Source: Acidobacteriota bacterium
Lineage (GTDB): Bacteria; Acidobacteriota; Thermoanaerobaculia; Multivoradales; J023
Direction of reading: 5' to 3'
NCBI GenBank assembly: GCA_029263395.1
Contig: JAJCXO010000184.1
Location: forward strand, 39,838-103,837
DNA: 64,000 nucleotides
Made by a program: the position numbers and the translations under genes. Of the stretch, positions 5,944 through 36,135 are shown piece after piece; within the stretch, counting starts at the first letter, position 1; each line of letters begins with the position of its first letter. Under the pieces are notes generated by a model that was not told the origin of the DNA, did not search any database, and saw nothing but the letters and a program-made list of their open reading frames with translations.

Positions 5944-7266
5944 TCAGTCCAATAATCCCGTCACTAATGATGGGAAGACAATGATCAGGATCAGCCCGAT
6001 CAACTGAATGGCGATAAACGGCAGCGCTCCGCGGTAGATCTGGACGGTGCTGACCTCTTTTGGAGCAACGCCCCGGAGGTAGAACAGGGCGAAGCCAAAA
6101 GGTGGCGTCAAGAACGATGTCTGCAGATTGACGCCGAGCATCACCCCGAACCACACCATGTCGATGCCCAACAATTGGGCCGCTGGTGCAACCAGCGGGA
6201 TGATGATGAAGGCGATTTCGAAGAAGTCGATAAAAAAGCCCAGGATGAAAATCGACACATTGGCGACAACCAGCAGACCAATCTTGCCACCGGGAAGCCC
6301 GGTCAACAGATCCTCAATCCAGAAATCGCCTCCCAAGCCTCGGAAGACCAAAGCGAAGGCGGTTGAGCCGATGAGCAGAAACAGCACCATTGAGGTCAGC
6401 TTGGTGGTTTCGTCCATCGTCGCACGCAGCGCCTTGAGAGTCAGGCGACGGTGGCTGACGGCGAGCAGTATCGCCCCCAAGGCCCCCAAAGCACCCGCCT
6501 CGGTCGGCGTCGCAACACCGGCGAAGATACTTCCGAGAACTAGCAGAATCAGGACCAACGGTGGGATCAGCACCCACACGACCTGCCCGAGCAGCTCCAT
6601 TGAGGTCTGATTGCGTTCGTCAGCAGGTAAGGCAGGAGCTGCCGCCGGGTTGAACAGCGCAACACCAGCTACGTAGAGCGCATAGAGCCCAGCCAACAGG
6701 ATGCCCGGCAGGAGAGAGCCTACGAACAGATCCCCAACCGAAATGCCAAGTTGATCGGCTAGGACCACCAAGACAACACTTGGTGGGATAATCTGCCCCA
6801 GGGTACCGGCAGCACAAATGACCCCGGTAGCCAGCTCGGTCGAATAGCCATAACGCAGCATGACTGGCAGCGAGATCAACCCCATGGCAACAACGGAGGC
6901 CCCAACGACGCCGGTTGCCGCCGCCAACAAGGCCCCCACGAAGACCACCGCCAGGGCCAGCCCTCCTCGCAGCGAGCCAAACAGCTTGCCGATGGTTTTC
7001 AGCAAATCCTCAGCCAGCTTTGCCTTCTCGAGCATCGTGCCCATGAAAATGAAGAATGGAACTGCGAGCAGAACAAAATTCGACATGATCCCGAAAATGC
7101 GCTCCGGCAGAGCGTACAACAGGGCCCAGTCCATGATCCCCAGATGGACTCCGAGAGCGGCAAAAAACAGGGCTGCCCCACCGAGGGCGAACGCCACCGG
7201 ATAGCCGGTAAAGATCAGTGCAAAAGCTCCGACGAACATCCACGGCGCTAGGTCTTCACCACTCAC
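5944..7266 (-). CDS. dctM: TRAP transporter large permease (DctM)
   Basis: 440-aa polytopic membrane protein with DctM-type motifs (FFIFMGTMLEKAKLAEDLL, MGLISLPVMLRYGY, DFFEIAFIIIPL). It overlaps dctQ by 4 nt. Confidence 0.9.
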   Translation of the reverse strand: MSGEDLAPWMFVGAFALIFTGYPVAFALGGAALFFAALGVHLGIMDWALLYALPERIFGIMSNFVLLAVPFFIFMGTMLEKAKLAEDLLKTIGKLFGSLRGGLALAVVFVGALLAAATGVVGASVVAMGLISLPVMLRYGYSTELATGVICAAGTLGQIIPPSVVLVVLADQLGISVGDLFVGSLLPGILLAGLYALYVAGVALFNPAAAPALPADERNQTSMELLGQVVWVLIPPLVLILLVLGSIFAGVATPTEAGALGALGAILLAVSHRRLTLKALRATMDETTKLTSMVLFLLIGSTAFALVFRGLGGDFWIEDLLTGLPGGKIGLLVVANVSIFILGFFIDFFEIAFIIIPLVAPAAQLLGIDMVWFGVMLGVNLQTSFLTPPFGFALFYLRGVAPKEVSTVQIYRGALPFIAIQLIGLILIIVFPSLVTGLLD

Positions 7267-7835
7267 AGATGAATCTCCGAAGCTGAATCACTCGGTGGCG
7301 GATCGCTCGAGCCACGTAGGATCGCTACCTGGCGTACGAGATGTGCCATACCTTGAAGGAGCAGCAGCCCAAACGCGATCAGTACAACCGTTTTGATCGG
7401 ATACCGCGCCAAACCACCGGGATCGGAAGACACCTCGCGAACCGCCCACGAATTCCGCACTGCCGGCCACGACACCCACAGGGTAAAAACTGTGAAAGGC
7501 ATCATCAAAACAATCGTGCCAATCAGATCAATCCAGGCTCGACCGCGATCGGTCAGTCGCCCATAAACCAAATCCACTCGCACGTGCGCATTCCGTTGAA
7601 AAGAGTACGAGGACCCCAACAGAAATACCAGGCTGAACAAGTACCACTGCATCTCGAGGTAAGCATTGGAGCTCAGGTTGCCACCCAGATTGCGTCCCAA
7701 ATAGCGGACAATGGCATTGTACGAGCCAATCAAAACCATCGCCAACGTTAGCCAAGCGACGCAGTTGCCGATTTTCTCGATCAGGCGATCAATGACCTGC
7801 GAGAATGCCAACCAGAAACTCATGGGGCGCTCCAC
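7263..7835 (-). CDS. dctQ: TRAP transporter small permease (DctQ)
   Basis: 190 aa with four TM segments, sitting directly upstream of and overlapping dctM. This is the typical DctQ size and topology. Confidence 0.8.
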   Translation of the reverse strand: MERPMSFWLAFSQVIDRLIEKIGNCVAWLTLAMVLIGSYNAIVRYLGRNLGGNLSSNAYLEMQWYLFSLVFLLGSSYSFQRNAHVRVDLVYGRLTDRGRAWIDLIGTIVLMMPFTVFTLWVSWPAVRNSWAVREVSSDPGGLARYPIKTVVLIAFGLLLLQGMAHLVRQVAILRGSSDPPPSDSASEIHL

Positions 7836-7962
7836 GATTGATGAATGTGCGAGGCTAGCATGAATACTCCACAGCTATTCGACGTACCTGTAAGAGATCA
7901 GTTCTTGGAACCCAAGTCCAGCCTTGGGGTAACACGCAGCCAACGACGACGGGAGAGCACCC

Positions 7963-8532
7963 ATGGAAACCACCATCCTGAGTATTGCGATCGGCTTGGG
8001 CCTCGCTGCCGCCTGCGGCTTCAGGATTTTTGTGCCACTGTTGATCATTAGTTTGGCCAGCCGCGGAGGCCATCTGGCCCTTACTGAGAGCTTTGAGTGG
8101 ATGGCCTCGACACCCGCGATGGTCGCGTTTGGTTGCGCGACACTGGTCGAGATTGCAGCCTATTACATTCCCTTCTTCGACAACCTCCTCGACACCATTG
8201 CTACGCCAAGCGCAGTCGTCGCCGGTGTTGTCGCCACCGGCTCGCAGGTAACCGATCTCGATCCTCTGCTCGGCTGGAGCGTCGCTATCATCGCTGGCGG
8301 CGGCGCGGCAGGGTCTATCCAAGGCCTGACCACGGTCACTCGTCAGTTCTCGTCCGTGGCAACCGCGGGATTCGGCAATCCGATTCTCTCCACTGTCGAA
8401 GCTGGCGCTTCCATCGGTATGACAGTCCTGGCCATCGTCCTGCCCTTCGTCGCTGCCATCGGGGTGCTGTTGATGCTGTTCATCGCGATGAAGAAGATCT
8501 TCTTTCGCTCTGCTCCAGAGGGCGCGAGCTAG
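7963..8532 (+). CDS. DUF4126 family membrane protein
   Basis: Gly/Ala-rich polytopic protein (LAAACGFRIFVPLLIISLA ... GWSVAIIAGGGAAGSIQG ... VLAIVLPFVAAIGVLLMLFIAMKK), characteristic of DUF4126. Confidence 0.65.
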   Translation: METTILSIAIGLGLAAACGFRIFVPLLIISLASRGGHLALTESFEWMASTPAMVAFGCATLVEIAAYYIPFFDNLLDTIATPSAVVAGVVATGSQVTDLDPLLGWSVAIIAGGGAAGSIQGLTTVTRQFSSVATAGFGNPILSTVEAGASIGMTVLAIVLPFVAAIGVLLMLFIAMKKIFFRSAPEGAS

Positions 8533-18612: not shown

Positions 18613-20626
18613 TCGAACTCTGTATGCCACCGCGTTTCTGTTGGCTGCATTCACCGTAAGCCACCCCCTCTTTAGCGCTCCCTTACCCTGGGAGACCTGG
18701 CAAGATCTCCACCGCCTGCCCGTGCTCCACCAGGGTAGCCAGACATTGTTGCGCTCGAGCCACTGCCCGGATGGCTGCCGTTTCGACCGCCACTCGGAGG
18801 GTGATTGGCGATACATCTATGTCGACGGCGAAGAAGGGACTATTTTCGAAGAGTCTGGAGCCGGCGCCATCACCCGCCTCTGGATGACCACCGGCATCGG
18901 TGGGGTCAGCACGCCGCTCGATTCCGATGTACGACTCAGAATCTACCTCGACGGCTCGTCGAGCCCGACGCTCGACGTTCCCTTACCCGCACTTTTCGAC
19001 GGCTCAACCCCACCCTTTGTGTCGCCATTGGTCGGCGACCGTCTGACCTCGAGTGGCGGCAACTTCAGCTACGTTCCGATCCCTTACCGCGACGGATGTC
19101 GGGTAAGCCTGGTCGGAGCCGACAAGACAAGGCTCTGGTACCAAGTCAACTTCCATCGACTTGGCGAAGCCGAGGACGTCACTAGCTTCACCGGCGACGA
19201 AGATCTTTCGACATTCGCCGACCTCCTGTCCCAGCAAGGCACCGATCCCTGGCCCCCTGGCAGTGGCAGTTTCAGCTCCGGCTCGGTGGTTCTCGAACCG
19301 GGTACCCAACATAACCTCCAAACCATCGAGGGACACGGATCCCTGACTGCCCTGATTCTCGGAGTCGATCCAGCTCAATGGTCGGACGTCGAGCTGCGGT
19401 TGACGTTCGACGATCAGCCAACAGTCCAGATGCGACTAGAAGATTTTTTCGCAATCGGCAGGGTTGGCCCGATACCCACCCGCTCCCTATTGATTGGGCT
19501 CGACGCGGTTGACAACCTCTACTCCTACTTTCCAATGCCGTTCTTCGAGAACGCCCGTATCGGGCTGTTCCACCATGGCTCTGCGGCCACTACGGCGAAC
19601 TATCAAGTACGGATCGACAACACTGAGCCGCTGGCAACAAGTGGCCTATTTGGTGCTCAGTTTAGACGCACCGAGGCCACCACAACCGGCATCGACTTCC
19701 CGACGATGGTGCTCGATGGGCACGGTAAGTTAGTTGGGACTTTTCTCGAGCTTGGTGCGACTATCCCTGGCCTGCGGGACTATCTAGAAGGCGATGAGCG
19801 CATCTTTGTCGATCACTCTCCGCACCCAGTGATTTACGGAACCGGCGTAGAAGATGCCTTCAACGGCGGCTTCTACTTCGATGCAGGTCCGTTCTCGAGG
19901 GCGCTTCACGGCGCTCCCTACACCGAGCTCGAGGTTGAAGGCCTACCCTACACCGCTGCCTACCGCTTGATGCTGACCGACGGTCCCACCTTCGAAAGCC
20001 GGCTCGCGGCAGGTCTCGAGAGTGGGCCGACAGGCAATGTCTCGATGGCCGCACGATCGGTCACTTGGTTCTACCGCCAACAGCCGACGCGGCTCCACCT
20101 CTGGGACGGTGTCGATCTAGGGAGTCCGACCGATCGCCTGAACCATCGCTACAAGGTAGACGGGCCACACACGTTCAAGCCGCTCGACGCGCTGTTCGAG
20201 GGTGAGCCACCTGTTTCGGCCACCGGAAGCGGTGTTTACCGGCCTCCTGGAACCGCCAGTTTTGTGCTTACCACTCACCCGACATCAACGCGTTTTCGTA
20301 TAAGGCAGCGACTCGACGCTGGCATGGGAGGCCAACGGGCAACGATCCTAGTTGGCGGCAAAGTAGCAGGTCGCTTTCCCGCGGTTGACATCAACAATGC
20401 TCGTCGGTGGCGTGAGGTCGACATCGATCTAAGCTCCCTGGCTCCAGCTCCGACAGAGCTTCAGATCACAGTCGTCGCCGAGGCAGGACCACCGGACGGA
20501 GATTCAGACACGTTTACCGCATTCCGCTACGAACTGTGGGCGGATGGCGAAGGATCGATTTTCGCCGACGGCTTCGAGTCAGGGGACCTGCTGGCGTGGA
20601 GCGGCTCCGGCTCAGCCAAAAACTGA
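18593..20626 (+). CDS. secreted DUF2961 / glycoside hydrolase family 172-like protein
   Basis: The track ORF starts at 18488 inside the repeat array. ATG at 18593 gives a clean signal peptide (MVLQKQNRTLYATAFLLAAFTVSHPLFSA). DUF2961-like motifs are present (WRYIYVDGEEG, GAGAITRLWMTT, GDERIFVDHSPHPVIYGTGVEDAFNGGFYF). It ends with DGFESGDLLAWSGSG. Confidence 0.55.
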   Translation: MVLQKQNRTLYATAFLLAAFTVSHPLFSAPLPWETWQDLHRLPVLHQGSQTLLRSSHCPDGCRFDRHSEGDWRYIYVDGEEGTIFEESGAGAITRLWMTTGIGGVSTPLDSDVRLRIYLDGSSSPTLDVPLPALFDGSTPPFVSPLVGDRLTSSGGNFSYVPIPYRDGCRVSLVGADKTRLWYQVNFHRLGEAEDVTSFTGDEDLSTFADLLSQQGTDPWPPGSGSFSSGSVVLEPGTQHNLQTIEGHGSLTALILGVDPAQWSDVELRLTFDDQPTVQMRLEDFFAIGRVGPIPTRSLLIGLDAVDNLYSYFPMPFFENARIGLFHHGSAATTANYQVRIDNTEPLATSGLFGAQFRRTEATTTGIDFPTMVLDGHGKLVGTFLELGATIPGLRDYLEGDERIFVDHSPHPVIYGTGVEDAFNGGFYFDAGPFSRALHGAPYTELEVEGLPYTAAYRLMLTDGPTFESRLAAGLESGPTGNVSMAARSVTWFYRQQPTRLHLWDGVDLGSPTDRLNHRYKVDGPHTFKPLDALFEGEPPVSATGSGVYRPPGTASFVLTTHPTSTRFRIRQRLDAGMGGQRATILVGGKVAGRFPAVDINNARRWREVDIDLSSLAPAPTELQITVVAEAGPPDGDSDTFTAFRYELWADGEGSIFADGFESGDLLAWSGSGSAKN

Positions 20627-20926
20627 CTCGTGCCGCATCCCCTCGTCGCCGGGTCCCAGTGTCACGAGGAAAATCCCAATCTCACCGAGGGTCTCGTTAG
20701 CCACCGTGAAGGTCCCTTGCTGAAGCTGGACGTCTTTAGGTCCACGAAAAATCACCGAGAAGGGCTGTCGCAGGTCGAGGCTGGCATCGGGGGCGGTCAG
20801 CCCACGCACCTCGATCAACTCGGTCTCGACTGGTTCCTGTTCATTGACGTAAATCAAGAACTTCTGATTAAGGCACTTGGAAAAGTCTTCCTTCGTCAGC
20901 TTTTCGAGGTGTACGGCTTCAGCCAT
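20612..20926 (-). CDS. hypothetical protein (104 aa)
   Basis: An ORF 8 nt-overlapped with the upstream GNAT gene on the same strand, suggesting an operon. No recognisable motif. Confidence 0.4.
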   Translation of the reverse strand: MAEAVHLEKLTKEDFSKCLNQKFLIYVNEQEPVETELIEVRGLTAPDASLDLRQPFSVIFRGPKDVQLQQGTFTVANETLGEIGIFLVTLGPGDEGMRHESVFG

Positions 20927-21437
20927 CGGTACGAATCTCCTTGGGGCTAGTTCCCGGGGTCCATTCCATGAGGTGATAGACGCCTTGTTCCTCGATCTTT
21001 TCGAAGCCTAACCGAAGATAAAGGCGCATCGCAGGATTGTTTTCTTCGACATGGATCCGCACTAGCAAATTGGCTGCTGCGCCTTCTGCAAGGATGTCCT
21101 GCATGATGGCACCACCGAGCCCGCTGCCACGGTGATCCGGTAGCAAAGCGATATCGATCAATCGAATCTCGTCTTCGCGCCGATCGATATACAAGCGTCC
21201 TATCGGCTTGTCGTCCAGCAGGATGAGGTCAAATTCCGCTTGTGGAAAATGCTCCATGTAGTACTTGTGCTGAGCATCAAACTGGAATAGCAGGAAATCC
21301 GCTTTCTCCTGCTCGGTCCACGGCACCATGGCCATCTCGTCAGCACGCGTCGAAGCGTAAACTTTGCGCAGGAAAAAGCGATCGGCATCGGTGATCGAGC
21401 GCAGCTTGACGGGCGCTTGTTTTGATCGCGAATTCAC
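20919..21437 (-). CDS. GNAT family N-acetyltransferase
   Basis: The acetyl-CoA binding motif A (LLPDHRGSGLGGAIM) and the GNAT fold pattern (IHVEENNPAMRLYLRLGF) are present. Confidence 0.8.
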   Translation of the reverse strand: MNSRSKQAPVKLRSITDADRFFLRKVYASTRADEMAMVPWTEQEKADFLLFQFDAQHKYYMEHFPQAEFDLILLDDKPIGRLYIDRREDEIRLIDIALLPDHRGSGLGGAIMQDILAEGAAANLLVRIHVEENNPAMRLYLRLGFEKIEEQGVYHLMEWTPGTSPKEIRTDG

Positions 21438-22582: not shown

Positions 22583-24004
22583 CTAGAGTTCGCCTTCCAC
22601 CTCGACGACGGCTGCGGGACTCATGGTGACCGTCAGGTAAGTCGGCCGAACACCACCATGCCGGTCGCGGTCTTGCTGGGGAGAAACCGACTGGCCAGGG
22701 AATCGCAACTCACAACTCGTCACCTCGATCGAGGACTCGAGGGAGGCTTCACTTCCCGCGAGCTGAACAATACACGGTGCCTGCAGGCGTACCCAGGCAT
22801 GCCCCTCGCCGGTCAAGGTCAACGAGGGCTTTCCGCTGACACCGCGCAGATCCAGATCGAGCTCCGAACCAACCATCTCGAGAGTTTTCAGTTGGGCGAT
22901 GCGACGAATCGAAACTTCCGCTCCAGATCCATTCAGGGTCAGCTGGTCGATCTCGTCTGCTTCCAGACGCGCATCGGTGACTTTGGCGTCGATTGCGCCC
23001 TGGACCCCACTGAGCCAACCTTCCGCTCCATCCGATAGATCCAGATTGAGGCTGCCGTGGATCCCCACAAACTCGACTCGGGTACCGGACCACGCGGTGG
23101 CTTGGATTGCGGCGTTCAACTCGGTACCCCGCAGGCTACCGCCTTCGAGACTTGCCGTGACCGTGCCCCAGACCCGTTCCAGGTCGAGTTCGAGGTCGCT
23201 TCCTTCCACTGTCCAACGTTTGCGGACCTCCGCCCCTCGAACTTCGAGGACCGAATTGCGGGCCGCGATCTCAACATCACCGCGCCATGCGTCGAAGGCA
23301 AGATGTGCACCACTTGCTGTGCCCTGAACGGTTCCCTCGCCACCCGCGATCTCGAGACTGCCGCCTTCGAGATGCGTCACGATCTCGCCAGCGTGGTCAG
23401 CAATCACGAGATTAGACTCACCAGCTGTAGCCTCTAGACGGCCGCTATGGCCATTCACTTGCGCCAAGCTGTCGTCGAGCGTCACGAGGAGCATCCCGTC
23501 CGTGCCGGTCAACGATACCGTACTGGCAACACTTTTGACTTCGGAGACCCGGACCCCGGATAGGTCCGCCGTCGACTGCTCGAGGTCGAGACGGTAAGCC
23601 GTATGCCCAGAGCCTTCTGGCAGCCCATGTTCGGCGTGGACCGAGAGATCGGCGCCCTGGATGTGCACGGACCGCCCTGGCCCGAGCGCCACGTCGAGAC
23701 GTAGGCGCGGCAAGTCGGCATCGTGGCCAACATCGGTTCGGCGGATGGTCAAGGTACCGCCTGAAGACACTGCTTCCAGGCTGGTGCTCTCCCCCACCGT
23801 CGTGACTCGAGCTCGCATCACCGGCAGGTGGTCAACCCGACCTGTAAAGTAGAGGTCCGCGTGATTCAACTCCAAAACAAGCTTCGAGTCGACACCCAGC
23901 GGTAACTCCCCCGGCAGTTCCAAGGTTGTGGCTCCTAGCCAACTTGGGGCCGCCGAGACCAAGGTCAGAAGCGCGGCGAGATGAAGGCCAAAGCAGAATC
24001 GCAA
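22583..24004 (-). CDS. secreted repetitive beta-rich protein (DUF4097/adhesin-like)
   Basis: Signal peptide (MRFCFGLHLAALLTLVSAAPS). Degenerate repeated segments are present (LEGGSL.G., GSDLELDLERV, GSELDLDLRGV), typical of beta-helical putative adhesin domains. Confidence 0.45.
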   Translation of the reverse strand: MRFCFGLHLAALLTLVSAAPSWLGATTLELPGELPLGVDSKLVLELNHADLYFTGRVDHLPVMRARVTTVGESTSLEAVSSGGTLTIRRTDVGHDADLPRLRLDVALGPGRSVHIQGADLSVHAEHGLPEGSGHTAYRLDLEQSTADLSGVRVSEVKSVASTVSLTGTDGMLLVTLDDSLAQVNGHSGRLEATAGESNLVIADHAGEIVTHLEGGSLEIAGGEGTVQGTASGAHLAFDAWRGDVEIAARNSVLEVRGAEVRKRWTVEGSDLELDLERVWGTVTASLEGGSLRGTELNAAIQATAWSGTRVEFVGIHGSLNLDLSDGAEGWLSGVQGAIDAKVTDARLEADEIDQLTLNGSGAEVSIRRIAQLKTLEMVGSELDLDLRGVSGKPSLTLTGEGHAWVRLQAPCIVQLAGSEASLESSIEVTSCELRFPGQSVSPQQDRDRHGGVRPTYLTVTMSPAAVVEVEGEL

Positions 24005-24060: not shown

Positions 24061-27000
24061 TTGAGTTTACTCGACTCGAGACGTTTCGACCGCTGCTATG
24101 ATGCGCCGGTGAAACTCGACCCGCGGTTCCTACTCCTGATCGCCTGTTTTGTCCTCTCGGGTTTCGCCGGCCTGATCTACGAAACGGTCTGGACGCAACA
24201 GTTCGCCGTCGTCTTCGGCACCTCTGAACTAGCGTTGTCGATGGTGCTTGCGGCCTACATGGCGGGACTGGCCTTGGGAGCCGCGCTCGCCGCACGCTGG
24301 GCCAGCCGAGTCCGGCGGCCGATTCTGATCTACGCCGTCCTCGAACTAGGTATCGGTCTCGCGGCACTGGCGGTGCCAGCCCTGATCGAAGCCGCTAGCT
24401 GGCTCCAGGTCGTGCTGCTGGGAGGTACTGAGCTGCCGGCGGCAGCGTCCACCGGGTCGGCTCTCTATGTGCTGGTCTCGTCGTTTCTCATCCTCCTGCT
24501 GCCGACCACGATGATGGGCGCCACGCTGCCGCTGCTGGTACGCCAGGCGGTGCGCCAGCCGCAGGAGATCGGCCGACGGATCAGTGCGCTGTATGCCGCC
24601 AATACCGCTGGCGCCGCGGCCGGGACTCTGGTGGCGGCATTTCTTCTTATGCCTCGAATCGGCCTCGGGCCCACGGTGTGGTGTGCTGCGGCGGTGAACC
24701 TCGCAGTTTTTCTGCTGGCGGCTGTCCTGGCTCGCGGAACGCCCCAAGAACTGGTCGCAGCGGACCGGATCGACGGCACACCCACCAGCCACTCACCCAC
24801 CAACGGGTGGATCCTGCCATTGATCCTGATCTCGGGTGCGGTCTCATTTACTTGGGAGATCCTCTGGACTCGGCTCTTGGGTCACATCCTCGGCGGCAGT
24901 GTCTACGCCTTCGCCACCATGCTCGCGACCTTCCTAACCGGTCTGGCTCTTGGATCGGCGGCGGCAGCCAAGATGACGTCGACTCCGGAACGGGCACGAC
25001 GTGGCTTCGTCGCTGCCCAACTCGCCATCGCAGGCCTGTCGTGCGCCGCGTTCTCGACCGTGGATCACCTTCCTGCCCTGGCGCGCCGGCTCCACGCGGC
25101 GGATAACCTTTTCAGCAGCGGAGCGATACTCTCCGCTGCTACTCTCTTGCCGGGGGCGATTGCTATCGGTGCAACCTTCCCCCTGGCGGTCCGCATGCTG
25201 GCTCGCGACACCCACGACGCCACCCGAGCCAGCGCTCGTGTGATGGTCTGGAATACGCTCGGAGCCATCACAGGCTCGCTGGCAGCCGGTTACGTCTTGC
25301 TGCCGGCTCTGCAATTCGCCACCACAGCCGCGGTCGCCACCGCGGTCAGTCTAATACTGGCGCTGAGTGTCGCGCTCGTCCGGCCTCGGCGACACATCTT
25401 GGCTGCGATGGCGTTGGTTGGCTTCGTGATGCTCGCAGCGATACAACCCACAACGCCGTGGTCGATTCTCCGTCGTGGCCCGCTGTCTCCCGACGAGGCT
25501 CCGGGTGAGGTTGTCCACTACGGTGTCGGCCAGAGTGCGACGGTGCTGTTGCTCGACCAACGTAGCGGGTGGCGGCTGACCACCAATGGGCTGCCAGAGT
25601 CGATCATCGACACGCCTTGGATGCGGCCAGGAAGAACCTTCATAGCCCATTGGTTGACCCTACTACCCTTCGCCGTGCGGCCCGAAACCCAGTCGCTAGT
25701 GGTCATTGGACTGGGGGGTGGAGTCACCGCGGAGGACGTCCCTCGGGCGGCCCAGGAGATCCACGTTATTGAACTCGAACCGGAGGTCATCCGAGCCAAC
25801 CAGTGGGCGGCGGCACGCCGACGTGTCGACCCTTTGGCAGATCCCCGGTTGCGGCTGACGGTCAACGACGCCCGGGGAGCTCTCAGGCTGACCAGACGAA
25901 GTTTTGACGCTATCGTTTCGCAACCCTCTCATCCTTGGACCTCCGGTGCGTCCCACCTCTTCACTCGCGAGTTCTTGCAGTTGGTGCGCGAGCGTTTGAC
26001 GCCGACTGGCGTCTTTGTTCAATGGATGGGTTTGCCATTCGTCGATGAGGCCTTGCTGAACTCCTTTGTCGCCACCGCGGTCGAAGTTTTCCCACACGTC
26101 GAGCTTTACCGTCCTGGGCCTGGAGCATTCTTGCTGCTGGCGTCTCCCGCCTCGCTCGAGATCGAACAGACCGCGGCGCGGACGATTGCCGACAGCCCTC
26201 ACCTGTGGTCCCGTCTGGGGGTCCTATGTCGTGAAGATATCCTCGCCGCTCGCGTGCTCGACAGCTCAGGCTCTCGACGCTTCGCCACTCAAGGCCAAGT
26301 CAGCACCGACGTCTTCAACCTGTTCCGCAACCGCTCTCCCAAGATCCTTGGTCACGCCCTGCAGCCCATCACTGCTGATCGAATGCTGGGCCCTTACGAA
26401 CCCTTGCTCGAAGTTTCCGCCGACATCGATCCACTCTACTTGGTACGGCGACTGATGCGCCAAGGCGCTGCTGGACGGGCCAGTCGGTTGGCCGAAGCGC
26501 AACAAGATCCAGGGATGCGTCAGGCGGCGATCGGTCTGGTCAAGCTAACGTCCAGAGCCCGCCAAGCCGGAGAGCAGGGCGCCAGTGAACAAAATGCAGG
26601 CGAGCTAGCCATGCGGCAGGCTCTCAGCCGGGTTTCCGACGCCGACAATTCGAGCACCGTCGAAGCGCTCCACGGGTTGCTTCTAGCGCGTTACCGGCAG
26701 CCCATCATCAACGGTGAGCCGGTATCGTTCACCAAGCGCTTTCCGAATGACCCGGCGGCGGCGGTGATCGCGGGTTGGCGCGCCTTGGGTGCGGAAGCTT
26801 GGGAGGAACTCGGGAGGCTCGAGCAACGCCTGGCGTTGGTGCAGCCACGCCACGCGTTGTTCCCGGAAGCAACGCGCCTGCGTGCCAGCTGGCGGACCGA
26901 AAGCGGCGATACAGCGATCGCTAGCCAAGCGTCCGCTCTACTCGAGCCGCTGCTGTCGCCTGTGCCGCGCCCTGCAGACCTCTTGCTCCTCGCTCGAGCC

Positions 27001-27198
27001 AGCGCCGCCGCCGACGAGCCACGGAAGGCATTGGCAGCACTCGACGAAGTGCTGCCCAGGCTTCCTCGCGGCTCTAAGTTGGCCAGCGAGGCGAGCCAGA
27101 TCCTTCGTTCCCTCCCCGCTGAACCTGGAGTCGAAACATGGCGGCAAGAGCTCAGGGAGCGCCTTCGTCGACCGATGAGCCCTCGTCCGCGGAGCTGA
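24061..27198 (+). CDS. fused MFS-like membrane domain / spermidine-synthase-like protein with long C-terminal helical extension
   Basis: The N-terminal roughly 450 aa are polytopic. The middle carries a spermidine-synthase-like SAM-fold (LVVIGLGGGVTAED...IHVIELEPEV...LTVNDARGAL...FDAIVSQPSHPWTSG). The C-terminal 400 aa are Ala/Leu/Arg-rich and helical. The start codon is uncertain. Confidence 0.7.
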   Translation: MSLLDSRRFDRCYDAPVKLDPRFLLLIACFVLSGFAGLIYETVWTQQFAVVFGTSELALSMVLAAYMAGLALGAALAARWASRVRRPILIYAVLELGIGLAALAVPALIEAASWLQVVLLGGTELPAAASTGSALYVLVSSFLILLLPTTMMGATLPLLVRQAVRQPQEIGRRISALYAANTAGAAAGTLVAAFLLMPRIGLGPTVWCAAAVNLAVFLLAAVLARGTPQELVAADRIDGTPTSHSPTNGWILPLILISGAVSFTWEILWTRLLGHILGGSVYAFATMLATFLTGLALGSAAAAKMTSTPERARRGFVAAQLAIAGLSCAAFSTVDHLPALARRLHAADNLFSSGAILSAATLLPGAIAIGATFPLAVRMLARDTHDATRASARVMVWNTLGAITGSLAAGYVLLPALQFATTAAVATAVSLILALSVALVRPRRHILAAMALVGFVMLAAIQPTTPWSILRRGPLSPDEAPGEVVHYGVGQSATVLLLDQRSGWRLTTNGLPESIIDTPWMRPGRTFIAHWLTLLPFAVRPETQSLVVIGLGGGVTAEDVPRAAQEIHVIELEPEVIRANQWAAARRRVDPLADPRLRLTVNDARGALRLTRRSFDAIVSQPSHPWTSGASHLFTREFLQLVRERLTPTGVFVQWMGLPFVDEALLNSFVATAVEVFPHVELYRPGPGAFLLLASPASLEIEQTAARTIADSPHLWSRLGVLCREDILAARVLDSSGSRRFATQGQVSTDVFNLFRNRSPKILGHALQPITADRMLGPYEPLLEVSADIDPLYLVRRLMRQGAAGRASRLAEAQQDPGMRQAAIGLVKLTSRARQAGEQGASEQNAGELAMRQALSRVSDADNSSTVEALHGLLLARYRQPIINGEPVSFTKRFPNDPAAAVIAGWRALGAEAWEELGRLEQRLALVQPRHALFPEATRLRASWRTESGDTAIASQASALLEPLLSPVPRPADLLLLARASAAADEPRKALAALDEVLPRLPRGSKLASEASQILRSLPAEPGVETWRQELRERLRRPMSPRPRS

Positions 27199-31140: not shown

Positions 31141-31311
31141 ATCAAGAAAAGCGAGCTGCTCAGTGTTGTCGACCCTCTGACGTTGTTGATCCGGCTGACG
31201 AAACGCCCGTCTCCTCGGAGGCCATCACCCGGAAGACTCGGTATGGAGTCTCCTCGCACAGATCATCAAGGCGCCTGACCGTCGGCAGCAGAGTCAACGA
31301 CGAACGCGCGT

Positions 31312-31710
31312 CTATTCTTCGTCGCTCAAACCAGAGTCCTGATTGTCTTCGACGGAGAACTCCATCAGCTCGACCGGCAGGTCGACGTTCGTGATGGTGA
31401 CCGTGCCACAGGCACAAGCCCATGCGCAGGTTGGGCTCACAGCGGTGGTGAAGGCGGCACCAGAGAGAAAAGAAGTAGAGGCGCTGGGATTCGGATCGCA
31501 GTCGATCATATTCATCTGCATCGTCAACGTGCATTGCTCAGCAGAGGACAGAATCTTGGCACCGTATCGGTAGTTCATGCCTCCCTGGGTACCTGTTCCC
31601 ATGCTGGTCGAAGCGGTTATGCACTGAGCTTCGATGGCCATTGGCTGCAGGGCCAGACAAATCACCAACAAAATCGAGCCAAGCCAAAACTTAGATCCAT
31701 GGATGTGCAC
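31312..31710 (-). CDS. small secreted Cys-rich protein (about 132 aa) with acidic C-terminal tail
   Basis: The track ORF extends to 31797. An internal GTG is preceded by GGAGGA (5-nt spacer) and gives the signal peptide VHIHGSKFWLGSILLVICLALQPMAIEA. The mature part has 7 Cys (QCITAS, EQCTL, IDCDP, SPTCAWACACG) and ends VELMEFSVEDNQDSGLSDEE. It lies in a locally AT-richer region. Confidence 0.45.
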   Translation of the reverse strand: MHIHGSKFWLGSILLVICLALQPMAIEAQCITASTSMGTGTQGGMNYRYGAKILSSAEQCTLTMQMNMIDCDPNPSASTSFLSGAAFTTAVSPTCAWACACGTVTITNVDLPVELMEFSVEDNQDSGLSDEE

Positions 31711-31954
31711 GTCGTTCCTCCGTATGATCCGCCGAGTACCGCGAAAAGCGTTCTCAAATCTTCTGTTTAACTTTAACGCTCGCAATTTATCAGCCACCGT
31801 GCGTTGCCGTCAATCGGCTGTCAACCGCTCGCTACTCGAGTCAACTGTCGAGGCCAAACGACGTAGTCTAGACCGTAAACACTGGTTTCAAGGATGATAA
31901 GATCTGCTCTCCGGGGCACAATCAAAGGATGGAATCAACAAAGGAGGCGCGCGC

Positions 31955-32470
31955 ATGAGTGAACCCTTTCTAGCCGAGGTCAGGATCGTCGGCTTCAACT
32001 TCGCACCAAGAGGCTGGGCTTTTTGTGATGGGCAGATTCTGCCTATCAACCAAAATCAGTCTTTGTACTCCCTGCTTGGCACCACCTACGGCGGCGATGG
32101 TAGAACCAGCTTCGCCCTACCCGATTTGCGTAGCCGGACACCGATTCACAGGTCCGATGGTCACACGCTGGGTCAGAAAAGCGGTGCCGAAACTGTCACC
32201 CTGACAGCTGCACAGATCGCCGCGCACACTCACACCGCCAAAGCCAGTTCAACCGCTGGCAACGAAAACACCCCAACGGGCAGAGTCTTGGCACAATCTG
32301 CTCCTGCCGGTGACCTGGCCTACCGGGATCCGCAAGCTGCCAGCACCACGGCACTCCGATCTGGCACCGTCACCAATGCCGGCGGCGGCCAAGCTCACAA
32401 CAACATGCAGCCGTACCTCACGGTCAGCTTCGTTATTGCTCTCCGGGGTCTCTTCCCCTCCAGAAACTAG
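31955..32470 (+). CDS. phage tail-collar domain protein (MdpB-like), paralog 1 of 3
   Basis: Motifs MSEPFLAEVRIVGFNFAPRGWAFCDGQIL...LYSLLGTTYGGDGRTSFALPDLRSRTPIH...GGGQAHNNMQPYL match the tail-collar (microcystin-dependent protein) family. RBS AAAGGAGG. Confidence 0.8.
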   Translation: MSEPFLAEVRIVGFNFAPRGWAFCDGQILPINQNQSLYSLLGTTYGGDGRTSFALPDLRSRTPIHRSDGHTLGQKSGAETVTLTAAQIAAHTHTAKASSTAGNENTPTGRVLAQSAPAGDLAYRDPQAASTTALRSGTVTNAGGGQAHNNMQPYLTVSFVIALRGLFPSRN

Positions 32471-32494
32471 TCTCCGACCTCAGAGGAAATCAAC

Positions 32495-33013
32495 ATGTCT
32501 GAACCCTTTGTCGGAGAGATCCGCATGTTCGCCGGTAACTTTGCTCCTCGAGGCTGGGCTTTCTGTGATGGCCAGCTTCTCGCTGTGTCTCAAAATGACG
32601 CGCTATTCAGTCTTTTGGGCACCATTTATGGCGGCGACGGTCGCACCACATTCGGGCTACCTGATCTCAGAGGCCGAATTCCCCTCCACCAGGGCACTGG
32701 GCCGGGGCTTTCAGCGCGCAGACTAGGATCCAAGGGTGGCGCAGAGAGGGAGACCCTGACCACCAACCAGCTAGCGAGTCACACGCATGATTGGAACGCC
32801 AATACCGCTGACGCGACAACCGCAGCCCCCGCTGGCAAAGTGCTTGCCAAGGCGGTGAACTTTCGGTTTTGGGAACCAGCAAACCCAAACACTGACCTCG
32901 CCTCGACCACCATCGCCAACACAGGTGGATCCCAGCCCCACAACAACTTGATGCCGACCCTTTGTATCAATTTCATTATCGCCCTTGTCGGCATTTACCC
33001 GTCGCGCCAGTAA
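32495..33013 (+). CDS. phage tail-collar domain protein (MdpB-like), paralog 2 of 3
   Basis: Same motif set as paralog 1 (MSEPFVGEIRMFAGNFAPRGWAFCDGQLL...LFSLLGTIYGGDGRTTFGLPDLRGRIPLH...GGSQPHNNLMP). Confidence 0.8.
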   Translation: MSEPFVGEIRMFAGNFAPRGWAFCDGQLLAVSQNDALFSLLGTIYGGDGRTTFGLPDLRGRIPLHQGTGPGLSARRLGSKGGAERETLTTNQLASHTHDWNANTADATTAAPAGKVLAKAVNFRFWEPANPNTDLASTTIANTGGSQPHNNLMPTLCINFIIALVGIYPSRQ

Positions 33014-33023
33014 GGAGATCAGC

Positions 33024-33554
33024 ATGTCCGAACCATTTACTGCCGAGATCAGAATCTTCGCTGGCAATTTTGCCCCTCGTGGCTGGGCGTTTTGCGACGG
33101 CCAGCTATTGCCGGTCGCTGAAAACACGGCCCTTTTTTCGCTTATCGGAACCACCTACGGCGGTGACGGTAGAACAACGACAGCCCTACCTAATCTTCAG
33201 GGGCGTGCGCCGATGCACCCGGGACGGGGCCCAGGACTCACCTCGCGCAGGCTCGGTGAGAAGGTTGGTGCCGAAACCGTGACGTTGTCTGAATCTCAGA
33301 TTCCGTCACACAGTCACACCGCACGTGCCCAGACAGCTGCCGGCAACGCCGGTTTAGCCCCCTCCAATACCACCGCAATCGGTCGCGCAGCACAAGGGGA
33401 CCTCTACCAATCCAACACGAGCGCCAACCTCGTCGACCTAGCCTCTTCGACCCTCGCCACGACAGGCGGCAGCCAATCGCACACCAACCTGCAGCCCTTC
33501 CTGACACTGAACTACATCATTGCGTTAGTGGGTTTGTATCCCTCTCGCAGCTGA
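33024..33554 (+). CDS. phage tail-collar domain protein (MdpB-like), paralog 3 of 3
   Basis: The track ORF starts at 32985. ATG at 33024 is preceded by AAGGAG and gives MSEPFTAEIRIFAGNFAPRGWAFCDGQLL, homologous to paralogs 1 and 2. Confidence 0.8.
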   Translation: MSEPFTAEIRIFAGNFAPRGWAFCDGQLLPVAENTALFSLIGTTYGGDGRTTTALPNLQGRAPMHPGRGPGLTSRRLGEKVGAETVTLSESQIPSHSHTARAQTAAGNAGLAPSNTTAIGRAAQGDLYQSNTSANLVDLASSTLATTGGSQSHTNLQPFLTLNYIIALVGLYPSRS

Positions 33555-33564
33555 GGACGATGCT

Positions 33565-34230
33565 GTGACCCGTCCTCTGAGTACTCAGGAGTCGCCGCTG
33601 CTCGCGCCGCGGCGGCGGGATATCCTCATGTATGGTGGTGCCTTGGCACTCCTACCTCGTCTGTCATGGGCTGGTGAGCAACAGTCTGAGTCCATCGCGA
33701 TCGGATACTGCCCGGAGTTACCGAGCGCTGAAGACCTCGACCACTGCCTGCTACCACGCAGCGTTGTGGCAGCTACTCGACTCGATGCTGGTGAAGCACG
33801 GCTGGCCCGGCGTGAAACCCGCATCACCGTCCACGGCCTATTCGGCACCGGGAGACTGTCGAAGCTCGGTATTCGAGCGGCCGAGCTACGCGTTAGATTC
33901 CCAGTGGCCAGTGTTGATGCTTCCGAGGTCGAATTCCAAGCCTGGAGTCATCAGATCTTGCCGGTAGAGAACGTCGGTTCAGCTAACGCCTTCACCGTAC
34001 CGATCGACCGTGGCCTTCAACTTGCTCTCGAACTGGATACTGCGATGGCAACGCAGCGCTTCGAAACGTTGCTTGTGACCGACAGCGAACCGGGCGCCGC
34101 GAAGCTTCGGAGCGGTTTTTACCTGATCGCTCCTGGGGCAACGGCATTTCGAGCTGAACGCTTCGATCCAACGGGACCCGAGCCGTTGATCGCCTTGTCT
34201 GTTCAGCTACTGGACGACCACACCGCCTGA
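33565..34230 (+). CDS. hypothetical protein with Tat-like signal (221 aa)
   Basis: N-terminus RRRDILMYGGALALLPRLSWAG. It sits 10 nt after the third tail-collar gene. No recognisable domain. Confidence 0.5.
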   Translation: MTRPLSTQESPLLAPRRRDILMYGGALALLPRLSWAGEQQSESIAIGYCPELPSAEDLDHCLLPRSVVAATRLDAGEARLARRETRITVHGLFGTGRLSKLGIRAAELRVRFPVASVDASEVEFQAWSHQILPVENVGSANAFTVPIDRGLQLALELDTAMATQRFETLLVTDSEPGAAKLRSGFYLIAPGATAFRAERFDPTGPEPLIALSVQLLDDHTA

Positions 34231-34382
34231 CTGGCCGTTCGGCTGGCCTTACCTGGATACCTCGAGTCGCGTAGTAGCGAACGGCTCGAGGCATTTATCT
34301 CCAGCACCCCTGTTGAGATTCACTGAATCCGAGATTCACCGGTTCGTAATACGCACGGTTATATAAGCGCATGTAAGATAAA

Positions 34383-35681
34383 GTGTTTCCTTCTGAAGCA
34401 CTAGCCATGCCCGTAAACTACACATCCGGAACCTTTCCAGAAGACAAGCTGGCCGCGCGTACGTGTCGAGACACGGATCTCCTCCAAGCCTTCGTCGAAG
34501 CTAACATCAGCGTCAACGCATGGCCAATTCACTCCCGGCCTCTGCTCAAGTTGATCCACCGCCGAGGACTCAACCTGCGGACAGCCCGCGAGTTCACCCC
34601 GTCCTTCGACACCCTTCTGGCCCTGATGCGCCGTATGCACACCGCATCACTCCGAGTCGAACGTCAATTATCGATCGACAACGCCTTCCATACCACACTG
34701 CACAACTATGAAGTGTTGCTTCGTCTCTTACTCCTCGAATGGCCCAGTAGCCAACCGATGCCATGGGAGATGCGACACGCAGTAGATCATGCGTACGATT
34801 CTTTCGATACGCTCGAGCCTCTCCTAGCCGACCTGATCAGCCAACTCCTCGACCGTGGTGTCCCCAGCTGGCGCCTAGCCCGAGATATTCTGGCCGCCGG
34901 TGGCCATGATTACGGCCACAGTGGAGATACCGACCGCTTGGGGCCGGACGGCGCTCCCCTACCCTTGACCCACGAAGAGACCGCCGAACGGCACGTCGCC
35001 AAGTTCGGTATCACCTTCGGATTTCCTCCGTCGTTGATCCTTGAAAGCCTGGCTGGGATCCGTGCCACCACATTGCATGTCCGCCAAGATCGTCAGAAAG
35101 TTCAAGCTAGCAATGACTTCGAACGCAAGATGACTCTGGCCGACGTCGCTGGCTGTGTCATGCGTCCAGATCAATGGATGATCCACGTCGCAATTCCGGT
35201 GTTACACGAACGTATGCAGCCATGGCAGCAGCGGCTGTCAGAGATCAGCGTCGAGATCGAGCAATTAACCCGCCAGATCGAGCGACTACCGCCCGATCAT
35301 GCCGAGCGCGAGCACAAAACCGCTCAACTAGCCGAGCTCGAAGCCGAAGAGGTCGCTCCGATCCAAACCGTCTCCGACGCTTTCGACAACGAGTTACGGT
35401 TCCTCAGTTTCATCCGCTCGAACCGTCTCGAACCCGTCGCCACCGGTTCCCGCCTCTGGGGCGAACGCATCGATAGGCGCATCGAACTCATCAAACGCCT
35501 TCTCAACCGCCGGGACCTCCTCGAACCCCTCGACGGACACGGTTTCCCCCTAGTCGAAACTCTAACCGAGAAGCTCGCCAACGCCGACAGCCTGCAACGA
35601 TCGCTCGCCCAAGATGGCGTCGATCCCAATCTTAGAGAACTCTTCTCCGAGTTCATCCCAGACGCGCCCCTCGGAGCCTAG
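34383..35681 (+). CDS. hypothetical protein (432 aa; possible HD-like His/Asp cluster)
   Basis: An ORF of long helical regions. The cluster GGHDYGHSGDTD is weakly reminiscent of a metal-binding site. It starts at GTG 34383 or ATG 34407. No confident family assignment. Confidence 0.45.
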   Translation: MFPSEALAMPVNYTSGTFPEDKLAARTCRDTDLLQAFVEANISVNAWPIHSRPLLKLIHRRGLNLRTAREFTPSFDTLLALMRRMHTASLRVERQLSIDNAFHTTLHNYEVLLRLLLLEWPSSQPMPWEMRHAVDHAYDSFDTLEPLLADLISQLLDRGVPSWRLARDILAAGGHDYGHSGDTDRLGPDGAPLPLTHEETAERHVAKFGITFGFPPSLILESLAGIRATTLHVRQDRQKVQASNDFERKMTLADVAGCVMRPDQWMIHVAIPVLHERMQPWQQRLSEISVEIEQLTRQIERLPPDHAEREHKTAQLAELEAEEVAPIQTVSDAFDNELRFLSFIRSNRLEPVATGSRLWGERIDRRIELIKRLLNRRDLLEPLDGHGFPLVETLTEKLANADSLQRSLAQDGVDPNLRELFSEFIPDAPLGA

Positions 35682-35704
35682 AACCCAGCTGTCTCGTCCA
35701 CCCA

Positions 35705-35935
35705 AACGCGAGCGAAGCAAGCCGTCAGGGGCTCAGTCAACAACGCGAGCGAAGCAAGCCGTCAGGGGCTCAGTCAACAACGCGAGCGAAGCAAGCCGTC
35801 AGGGGCTCAGTCAACAACGCGAGCGAAGCGAGCCATCAGGGGCTCAGTCAACAACGCGAGCGAAGCAAGCCGTCAGGTTGGAGCTGCTGGAGTACAGATC
35901 TCGTACGCCCGAACGCGAGCGAAGCGAGCCGTGAG
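35705..35935. repeat. 37-bp direct tandem repeat x 5 plus a degenerate copy (ACGCGAGCGAAGCAAGCCGTCAGGGGCTCAGTCAACA), abutting the tRNA-Lys 3' end
   Basis: Read directly. The period is 37 bp (not a multiple of 3). The overlapping track ORF 35614..35934 is therefore likely spurious. Confidence 0.85.
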
Positions 35936-35980
35936 GCCGCCGAGACCTGTCGGAACACCAGAGCGACTGAAAGGAGCGAA

Positions 35981-36056
35981 TGGTGGGCCGTACAGGTCTC
36001 GAACCTGTGACCCGCGGATTAAAAGTCCGCTGCTCTACCAACTGAGCTAACGGCCC
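35981..36056 (-). tRNA. tRNA-Lys (anticodon UUU)
   Basis: The reverse complement folds as a canonical cloverleaf: acceptor GGGCCGT/ACGGCCC, U8, D-arm GCTC..GAGC, anticodon stem GCGGA/TCCGC with loop CTTTTAA, T-arm ACAGG-TTCGAGA-CCTGT, discriminator A and an encoded CCA. Confidence 0.9.
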
Positions 36057-36135
36057 CACCGGGGACGGAGTATACCCAATTCTGCCATCGTGTGGCACGC
36101 CAAAGACAATCGAAAAACAATCGAAAAACGATTGT

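Follow-up and report, generated by a model that had tools for sequence, protein, structure and literature searches.

Does the gene cluster beside the tRNA-Lys(UUU) gene in a 64,000-nucleotide stretch of an Acidobacteriota genome (assembly GCA_029263395.1, contig JAJCXO010000184.1, positions 39,838 to 103,837 of the forward strand; hereafter the window, meaning the whole stretch) represent a recently acquired island, or a resident set of genes that work together? The cluster holds three tandem genes for proteins of the phage tail-collar type, flanked by a gene for a Cys-rich secreted protein and a gene for a protein with a twin-arginine translocation (Tat) signal. A previous account based on the letters alone (the sequence-only reading) had described it as a horizontally acquired, mobile island bordered by the tRNA. 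We find a native, rearranged version of a gene set that is already known, accompanied by two accessory families not described before. The cluster is probably a native copy of a widespread module in which the collar triad forms a 1:1:1 heterotrimeric fibre, similar to the tip of T4 gp37, that works with accessory partners. The genes assigned to the module are as follows (window coordinates; aa, amino acids; GC, guanine plus cytosine content; HMM, hidden Markov model).

31315-31710, minus strand: Cys-rich secreted protein, 132 aa; GTG start, with GGAGGA 6 nt upstream.
31711-31954: divergent intergenic region with the lowest GC in the cluster; sigma-70-like site at 31813-31784 on the minus strand.
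31955-32470, plus strand: collar paralog 1, 171 aa; PF07484 E-value 7e-28, Gp10_C 28.1 bits (cut-off 27).
32495-33013, plus strand: collar paralog 2, 172 aa; PF07484 E-value 1.8e-30.
33024-33554, plus strand: collar paralog 3, 176 aa; PF07484 E-value 1.8e-27.
33565-34230, plus strand: Tat-signal protein of family f221, 221 aa; start 10 bp past collar 3.
20919-21437, minus strand: GNAT acetyltransferase, 172 aa; PF00583 E-value 2.8e-12, neighbour HMM E-value 2.3e-76.
20612-20926, minus strand: DUF6916 protein, 104 aa; PF21880 E-value 3.7e-24.

The gene list of the sequence-only reading (Cys-rich, three collar, Tat-signal and 432-aa proteins, tandem repeat and tRNA-Lys) was borne out in coordinates and content. 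The compact module that it drew from that list was not: the 432-aa gene is unrelated, and the GNAT and DUF6916 genes lie outside the interval, at 20612-21437. The collar genes are consecutive on one strand with gaps of 24 and 10 bp, and the f221 gene that follows them is possibly translationally coupled to collar 3. Shine-Dalgarno motifs were found upstream of all five genes of the contiguous cluster, which agrees with the claim that every collar gene has its own ribosome-binding site. The further claim, that these sites are strong in a genome where such signals are otherwise weak, holds only in a relative sense because about 12 other long open reading frames (ORFs) of the window also carry the motif. 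At most, the pattern marks a run of well-translated genes.

The collar genes are clearly members of PF07484, of the free-standing bacterial type that PGAP names 'tail fiber protein' and that we take to be COG4675 'MdpB'. The proposed profile check gave a match for all three paralogs, with E-values of 1e-27 to 1e-30 and scores of 96.8, 105.1 and 95.5 bits for collars 1, 2 and 3 (Pfam gathering cut-off 24); on the Gp10_C profile, collars 2 and 3 stayed under the cut-off. The paralogs are 51-53% identical to each other, close to the figure of about 50% in the sequence-only reading. We scanned one genome per species with the collar alignment and recovered at least 597 loci, 80 of which were kept, with 53-76% identity to collar 1. 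The kept loci come from at least 12 phyla; the phyla and classes represented include Proteobacteria, Acidobacteriota, Chloroflexota, Verrucomicrobiota, Planctomycetota, Bacteroidota, Actinomycetota, Gemmatimonadota, Calditrichia and Desulfobacterota. The remark that such triads recur in bacterial genomes without an assigned function was thus correct, and the recurrence is broad. In the HMM scan, essentially every locus had three tandem collar genes and three loci had six; the exceptions were L067, which is cut by a contig end, and L086, which has two genes. The six-gene loci (L044, L058 and L066) consist of two triads in tandem, which suggests that the three-gene unit was duplicated in full and not gene by gene.

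Are the three positions of the triad equivalent? We compared 77 cleanly parsed triads, i.e. 231 chains. The best match in another locus was found at the same position in 5384, 5251 and 5340 of 5852 cases for positions 1, 2 and 3, respectively (~91%), and the median identity was 50% within a locus versus 56-58% between same-position proteins of different loci. H91 and H93 (an HxH motif), H148 and N150 are invariant in 231/231 chains, and residues ~95-140 are hypervariable. Most chains begin with M-(S/A)-(E/D/Q)-P-(F/Y), and a signal peptide is absent from the N-termini (MSEPF or MAEPF) of all 231. An obligate 1:1:1 heterotrimer predicts just this: an ancient triplication whose order stays fixed and whose every chain has a metal motif for the threefold axis. 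In such a model, the three ~170-aa proteins would assemble 1:1:1 into a short heterotrimeric fibre resembling the tip of T4 gp37/gp12. Each chain would supply a conserved collar domain and, through its HxH, a share of a metal site on the threefold axis, and the ligand bound by the hypervariable distal head would probably be a glycan or some other surface structure.

The same genes could instead encode three independent homotrimeric lectins of different specificity. The phage collar fibres gp12 and gp37 are homotrimers, and every paralog has both its own Shine-Dalgarno site and its own hypervariable head. Positive selection has been reported for collar paralogs of Solibacter (PMC3174227). However, if the lectins were independent, their number should fluctuate and lineage-specific duplications should be seen, whereas the copy number here is near-fixed at three or six, and gene order and position-specific orthology are kept. 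Moreover, the collar triad of a virophage (see below) is a heterotrimer by experiment. We regard three separate lectins as unlikely.

A prophage or tailocin remnant, i.e. leftover tail-fibre genes, would also explain the Collar domain, the PGAP name and the PHROG matches, all of which are to phage tail-fibre families; within long fibre families, the collar proteins match only the tips or distal parts. Against this origin, the genes scanned around the triad, in the window and in its relatives, included no further phage family, and the strict triad order and the non-phage partners are kept across the same range of phyla. A scan of viral contigs returned only 12 matches; the full-length ones were again triads, one of them with GNAT and DUF6916 genes. 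We consider a remnant of this kind very improbable, and continue with the heterotrimeric fibre as the preferred reading. Plasmid copies are likewise annotated as 'tail fiber protein', mostly with three per record. Separately, IMG/VR contigs L133-L138 (e.g. L134 5001-5234) encode 'mini-collar' proteins of ~78 aa that match only collar positions 1-60 and the last ~13 residues, and that have neither the HxH nor the head. We also considered membership of a defence system; a PADLOC search with ten proteins gave no matches, and this candidate was rejected.

Which genes accompany the triad? Partner counts were obtained by clustering the genes that neighbour the triads. A GNAT of ~176 aa flanks the triad in 72 loci and a DUF6916 protein of ~104 aa does so in 66 loci; a giant (~1860 aa) Ig-like surface protein adjoins it in 40 loci, mostly immediately upstream and on the same strand (that of L083 has He_PIG, Big_9 and Cadherin_5 domains). 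The GNAT and DUF6916 proteins would thus be the usual partners of the fibre. Both usually lack a signal, in the case of DUF6916 in its common ~100-aa form. The families nearest to the GNAT are RimI-type and N-terminal acetyltransferases, with weak scores under the cut-offs of those families. Given this weak likeness and the conserved collar N-termini, N-terminal acetylation of the collar chains by the linked GNAT is a possibility. In the literature searched we found no paper that deals with the bacterial triad-GNAT-DUF6916 neighbourhood, with the Cys-rich family or with f221.

The window carries both usual partners, about 10 kb from the triad and with five genes between, so that they are not directly adjacent. 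To place this arrangement, we used three related Acidobacteriota contigs (L001, L142 and L002) that were reached through homologs of the 432-aa protein, a phosphodiesterase (PDE)-like protein described below, and a 9.3-Mb circular genome (L008). L001, whose PDE-like ortholog is 81% identical and whose first collar protein is 85% identical to collar 1, has the order rotamase, sulfatase-TPR, Cys-rich (minus strand), three collar genes, PDE-like. In L142 (65%) we find genes for a 227-aa protein, a 477-aa protein, rotamase, sulfatase, the Cys-rich protein, three collar proteins, a 223-aa protein and the PDE-like protein; the window order is kept over 11 kb, the right flank differs and there is no tRNA within 10 kb. 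L002 (64%) has the same order together with the right flank of the window (tRNA-Lys, pseudopilins, ArsR-methyltransferase and AdoHcy hydrolase) and an extra 371-aa gene ahead of the tRNA. In L008 the Cys-rich gene, three collar genes and a 206-aa gene are together, the flanks are rearranged, and the PDE-like gene and the tRNA are missing. The layout in L008 is compact: DUF6916, GNAT, methyltransferase, 365-aa and Cys-rich genes in one direction, then three collar genes followed by f221 in the other, with the GNAT/DUF6916 pair ~2.3 kb from the Cys-rich gene. A homolog of the 365-aa gene lies in the window as a 473-aa ORF (22583-24004, minus strand). This homolog and the compact layout of L008 indicate that the left arm was opened in the window lineage by the rotamase, sulfatase and MFS-spermine-synthase genes; i.e. 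GNAT and DUF6916 were parted from the triad by rearrangement.

The 365-aa gene belongs to a group of internally repetitive proteins of 365-490 aa with no Pfam or NCBIfam match (window 22583-24004, minus strand; L008 6366-7463; L002 3277-4749; L142 1167-2600). In this lineage they stand near the GNAT/DUF6916 pair or the module, with 37-51% identity where compared, and they may be a further lineage-specific component of the module. In L002, which comes from a long-read metagenome, neither the Cys-rich gene nor the first collar gene lies in a single reading frame (6885-7436 and 7625-8170); this could reflect pseudogenisation or assembly indels.

Is the cluster then an island? The question turns in part on the features at its right border:

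34407-35681, plus strand: PDE-like enzyme of the HD superfamily, 424 aa; 432 aa if the GTG at 34383 is used.
35705-35877, intergenic: 37-bp tandem repeat, 4.7 copies (TRF), with a sixth, degenerate copy at 35913-35936.
35981-36056, minus strand: tRNA-Lys(UUU), called by ARAGORN and Rfam.

The nearest genes outside are that for a sulfatase-TPR protein on the left and pseudopilin genes on the right. A recent genomic island or integrative element inserted at the tRNA-Lys would fit several observations. The tRNA and the 37-bp repeat do lie by the right border, as had been stated, and the 3' end of the tRNA faces the cluster. GC is slightly reduced at 31550-32000. In addition, collar 1 has 70-76% identity to proteobacterial proteins, more than to many from Acidobacteriota; this points to an old transfer of triads between phyla.

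Composition gave no further sign of a foreign origin. The GC of the window is ~0.58, with 1-kb bins of 0.53-0.64 overall and 0.55-0.60 in the cluster. The minimum of 0.52 at 31550-32000 coincides with the divergent intergenic/promoter region and the coding sequence of the signal peptide, and other 1-kb bins go down to 0.53-0.54; the AT-richer patch at about 31550-31950 is not the foreign mark that it was taken for. GC at third codon positions (GC3) is 0.61-0.67 in the cluster genes versus 0.67 ± 0.034 in 23 other genes (within ~1.7 standard deviations). The tetranucleotide distance at 30-37 kb is 0.13-0.14, at or below the window mean of 0.146 ± 0.023. The composition is thus not atypical, with both GC3 and tetranucleotide usage native. 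The most deviant tetranucleotide usage of the window is at 24-30 kb, outside the cluster. This stretch contains, at 24061-27198 on the plus strand, a gene for a 1045-aa fusion of a membrane domain resembling the major facilitator superfamily (MFS) and a spermine/spermidine-synthase domain, which is also present in L001.

Signs of integration were also missing. No exact 14-mer of the tRNA-Lys, and no 16-18-mer with one mismatch or fewer, recurs elsewhere in the window as an attachment-like repeat. Integrase or mobility families were absent from the flanking genes scanned in the window, which are part of its ORFs, and from the precomputed gene tables of L001, L002, L142 and L008. The tRNA-Lys is at the matching place only in L002, with none within 10 kb in L142 or L008, and its adjacency to the cluster is incidental. 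Gene order and left flank are kept in L001, L002 and L142 although the PDE-like orthologs have diverged to 64-81% identity. Among the four relatives recovered, a small sample, the module was present in 4/4 and no empty site was found. The sequence-only reading had itself proposed that conserved order at native GC in relatives would speak against an island, and this is what L001, L002 and L142 show. The cluster is native chromosomal DNA and not a recently acquired island; we give an insertion at the tRNA-Lys almost no credence.

The 37-bp unit (AACGCGAGCGAAGCAAGCCGTCAGGGGCTCAGTCAAC) lies between the PDE-like gene and the tRNA-Lys in copies that are 97% identical. No further copies were found in the window or in the loci of the relatives compared, and the 371-aa gene of L002 fills the position that the repeat holds in the window. 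We rejected the repeat as a structured or known RNA: it folds no better than shuffled sequences (z +1.17), shows no structure signal, and the only Rfam match was the tRNA. An 11-bp unit (AAAAACAATCG) is repeated 2.5 times at 36102-36129, just upstream of the tRNA-Lys, and overlaps sigma-70-like sites on the minus strand. The 37-bp repeat, the tRNA-Lys and the PDE-like gene are neighbours with no functional link to the module.

We next consider the two accessory families. The 221-aa protein has the twin-arginine (RR) N-terminus (…PRRRDILMYGGALALL…, motif RRRDIL) that had been read as a Tat signal, and this signal is conserved in its family, f221: the RR pair does not vary, the surrounding RRRD[ILVF] is conserved, and a hydrophobic stretch comes next, e.g. 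AYGAGLALLP in close homologs. There are nine close homologs, and distant members lie by triads in other Acidobacteriota and in Chloroflexia (8 loci in total). A 118-aa family, located 3 bp past the triad in seven gammaproteobacterial loci, has an RR signal in 7/7 and is a DUF6916 homolog (hhalign probability 96.6%). Proteins combining a Tat signal with DUF6916 also flank triads in Verrucomicrobiota, Pyrinomonadaceae, Paraglaciecola and others. The following triad-associated genes encode DUF6916 fused to an N-terminal RR signal:

L046, 5273-5788
L059, 5310-5813
L061, 5306-5857
L070, 5549-5995
L086, 5458-5892

Altogether, a Tat-signal protein (an f221 relative or RR-DUF6916) adjoins the triad in about 20 of 85 loci, in several of them only 2-11 bp away. 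A relationship between f221 itself and DUF6916 was rejected (hhalign probability <1%).

The Cys-rich protein is, as described earlier, a 132-aa minus-strand product with a signal peptide, seven cysteines and an acidic tail. The signal peptide (…LVICLALQPMAIEA|QC, ending AIEA|QC) contains one of the cysteines and the mature part six. A word-indexed search found nine relatives and a full profile search found 415 representative clusters, of which 191 were at E<=1e-10; of the 150 listed, nearly all are 100-200 aa. Members share the signal peptide, (A/S)QC at the predicted mature N-terminus, five invariant cysteines and one nearly invariant one, an invariant L-P-x-E-L…F inside DGLPVELM(D/E)F, and a variable acidic tail. 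The family has no Pfam or NCBIfam match, and hhalign gave probabilities <1% against f221 and against DUF6916. We examined LPVELMEF as a motif in common with the giant adhesins or other neighbours and rejected it, as a regular expression and a relaxed HMM run over all locus ORFs matched only the Cys-rich family. The conserved C-terminal peptide of the family is a candidate docking element.

The proposed link between the Cys-rich protein and the triad held in part. The gene adjoins collar genes in L001, L002 (frameshifted), L007, L008, L142, L089, L094, L110 and L124, and it adjoins GNAT and/or DUF6916 in L094, L104, L107, L116 and L124. It is thus with the triad in all four relatives and in L007, and next to collar, GNAT or DUF6916 genes in 7/40 metagenome loci. 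We read the protein as an accessory secreted partner in some lineages.

How might these parts work together? The Sec-exported Cys-rich protein, a predicted beta-sandwich whose gene is transcribed divergently from the triad, and the Tat-signal 221-aa protein would be lineage-restricted accessory partners of the fibre. Since the collar chains lack a signal and would have to take up metal and assemble in the cytoplasm, export by hitch-hiking on a Tat-signal partner is a reasonable hypothesis. The signal-less trimer would fold and bind metal in the cytoplasm, leave the cell on the Tat-signal partner and then meet the Cys-rich protein in the envelope.

Several observations weigh against this picture. 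The case for a heterotrimer comes from comparative data and from the analogy with a virophage. The collar chains carry no signal peptide of their own, and Tat hitch-hiking cannot be general since most triad loci have no Tat-signal neighbour. L001 has the triad without an f221 gene. At least 11 metagenome loci of the Cys-rich family with at least 1.5 kb of flank have no module gene nearby. Finally, co-regulation of GNAT and DUF6916 with the triad is not evident in the window, as they lie 10 kb off.

These points also bear on a different possibility, that the collar complex is intracellular (e.g. a target or regulator linked to the GNAT), is never exported and has secreted neighbours only by coincidence. 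The complete lack of signal peptides among the collar chains fits such a complex, as does the usual lack of signals in its most constant partners, GNAT and DUF6916. Against it, secreted neighbours recur (the giant Ig-like protein in 40 loci, Tat-signal proteins in ~20, and the Cys-rich family), and a hypervariable head of the receptor-binding type fits an extracellular ligand. On balance, an intracellular complex seems to us rather unlikely, and an exported heterotrimeric fibre the better account. A bolder version of the latter is that bacteria of many phyla have domesticated a phage receptor-binding tip as an obligate heterotrimer. It would receive its metal in the cytoplasm, possibly be acetylated by the GNAT at its Ser/Ala-Glu-Pro-Phe start, ride out on the Tat-signal protein (f221 in the window, Tat-DUF6916 in other loci) and dock on Cys-rich proteins or giant adhesins. 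We consider this full chain of steps quite unlikely as a whole; if true, it would add a class of modular devices for surface recognition that has so far gone unrecognised.

What, finally, is the neighbour on the right? The 432-aa ORF starts 150 bp past the f221 gene, and an identical database copy starts 8 codons later, giving 424 aa. The earlier description, a helical protein without a family, stands insofar as there is no Pfam or NCBIfam match at threshold, but a class I cyclic-nucleotide PDE catalytic-domain fold is recognisable. We found 84 homologs of ~420 aa in Acidobacteriota and Polyangia, none of them named or assigned a Pfam domain. Invariant in the alignment are H95, H99, N100, G166-H167-D168, H171, H189-E190 and D246. 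PDEase_I was matched by 2/50 family members (best E-value 0.0017) and not by the window protein, and there were a few weak HD matches; a PDB profile search aligned HNxxH and GHDxGHxG to yeast PDE2 (E-value 0.079). The protein differs from the class I enzymes PDE9A and PDE4 in its low identity (12-16%) and an extra C-terminal helical region. Homologs at 57% identity or less (four loci, 43-57%) have unrelated contexts and no collar genes; in L005 the homolog overlaps an operon of cyclic-nucleotide-monophosphate-binding proteins. From its motifs, the 432-aa protein is most likely a divergent cyclic-nucleotide phosphodiesterase; it is unrelated to the collar genes.

For the window itself the outcome is mostly corrective: there is no island, one of the proteins taken as unknown, that of 432 aa, is a PDE-like enzyme, and the flagged interval misses two genes of the module. 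More widely, at least hundreds of bacterial species have annotated free-standing collar genes, with no function assigned to them since RhiB and MrpB were described. The comparative picture (triad unit, metal motif, variable head, partners and secreted neighbours) makes the hypotheses on assembly and export testable.

The closest known systems can be compared with the window point by point. The C-terminal domains of T4 gp37 (the tip), gp12 and gp10 resemble the window chains in their Collar and Gp10_C profile matches and in the HxH, and the T4 domains bind metal via HxH on the threefold axis. They differ in that the T4 domains are the C-terminal parts of long homotrimeric fibres, whereas the window chains correspond to the tip alone, as three distinct chains. 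Among bacteria, RhiB (rhiABC, Rhizobium) carries a collar domain (PMC13133039) and MrpB of Microcystis is highly similar to it (PMC3328848). They are single collar genes, paired with RhiA or MrpA, and not triads as in the window. The fold of RhiA and MrpA is a beta-sandwich of another kind, with plant metabolites as ligands (PMC13490719); the annotations of the window neighbours show no resemblance to this fold, and RhiA-like partners were not searched for by sequence.

In the virophage DSLV2, three consecutive PF07484 proteins co-purify and run at ~55 kDa on a native gel (theoretical 58.3 kDa), and the tripartite 1:1:1 complex is a 16-nm fibre that binds Synechococcus cells (J Virol 2025, PMC12724248). 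Like the window, DSLV2 has three consecutive same-strand PF07484 genes of similar size, with a collar domain and a variable head. The DSLV2 complex is part of a virion and has a minor capsid gene adjacent, whereas the window triad is chromosomal and has GNAT, DUF6916, Cys-rich and Tat-signal proteins as partners; the genes scanned around it are cellular, with no viral families or capsid genes among them.

Other bacterial triads also resemble that of the window. The Ruegeria sp. TM1040 megaplasmid locus encodes a 'choice-of-anchor D' protein, three 'tail fiber proteins', a hypothetical protein, a GNAT and a 97-aa hypothetical protein; its collar genes (TM1040_RS01850-RS01860) agree with the window in family, size and triad order, and the GNAT and DUF6916 are common to both. 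In such canonical triads a giant Ig-like or 'choice-of-anchor D' protein is adjacent and GNAT and DUF6916 are adjacent too, usually downstream. In the window, by contrast, the upstream neighbour is a small Cys-rich protein, the downstream one is a Tat-signal protein, and the GNAT/DUF6916 pair is 10 kb away.

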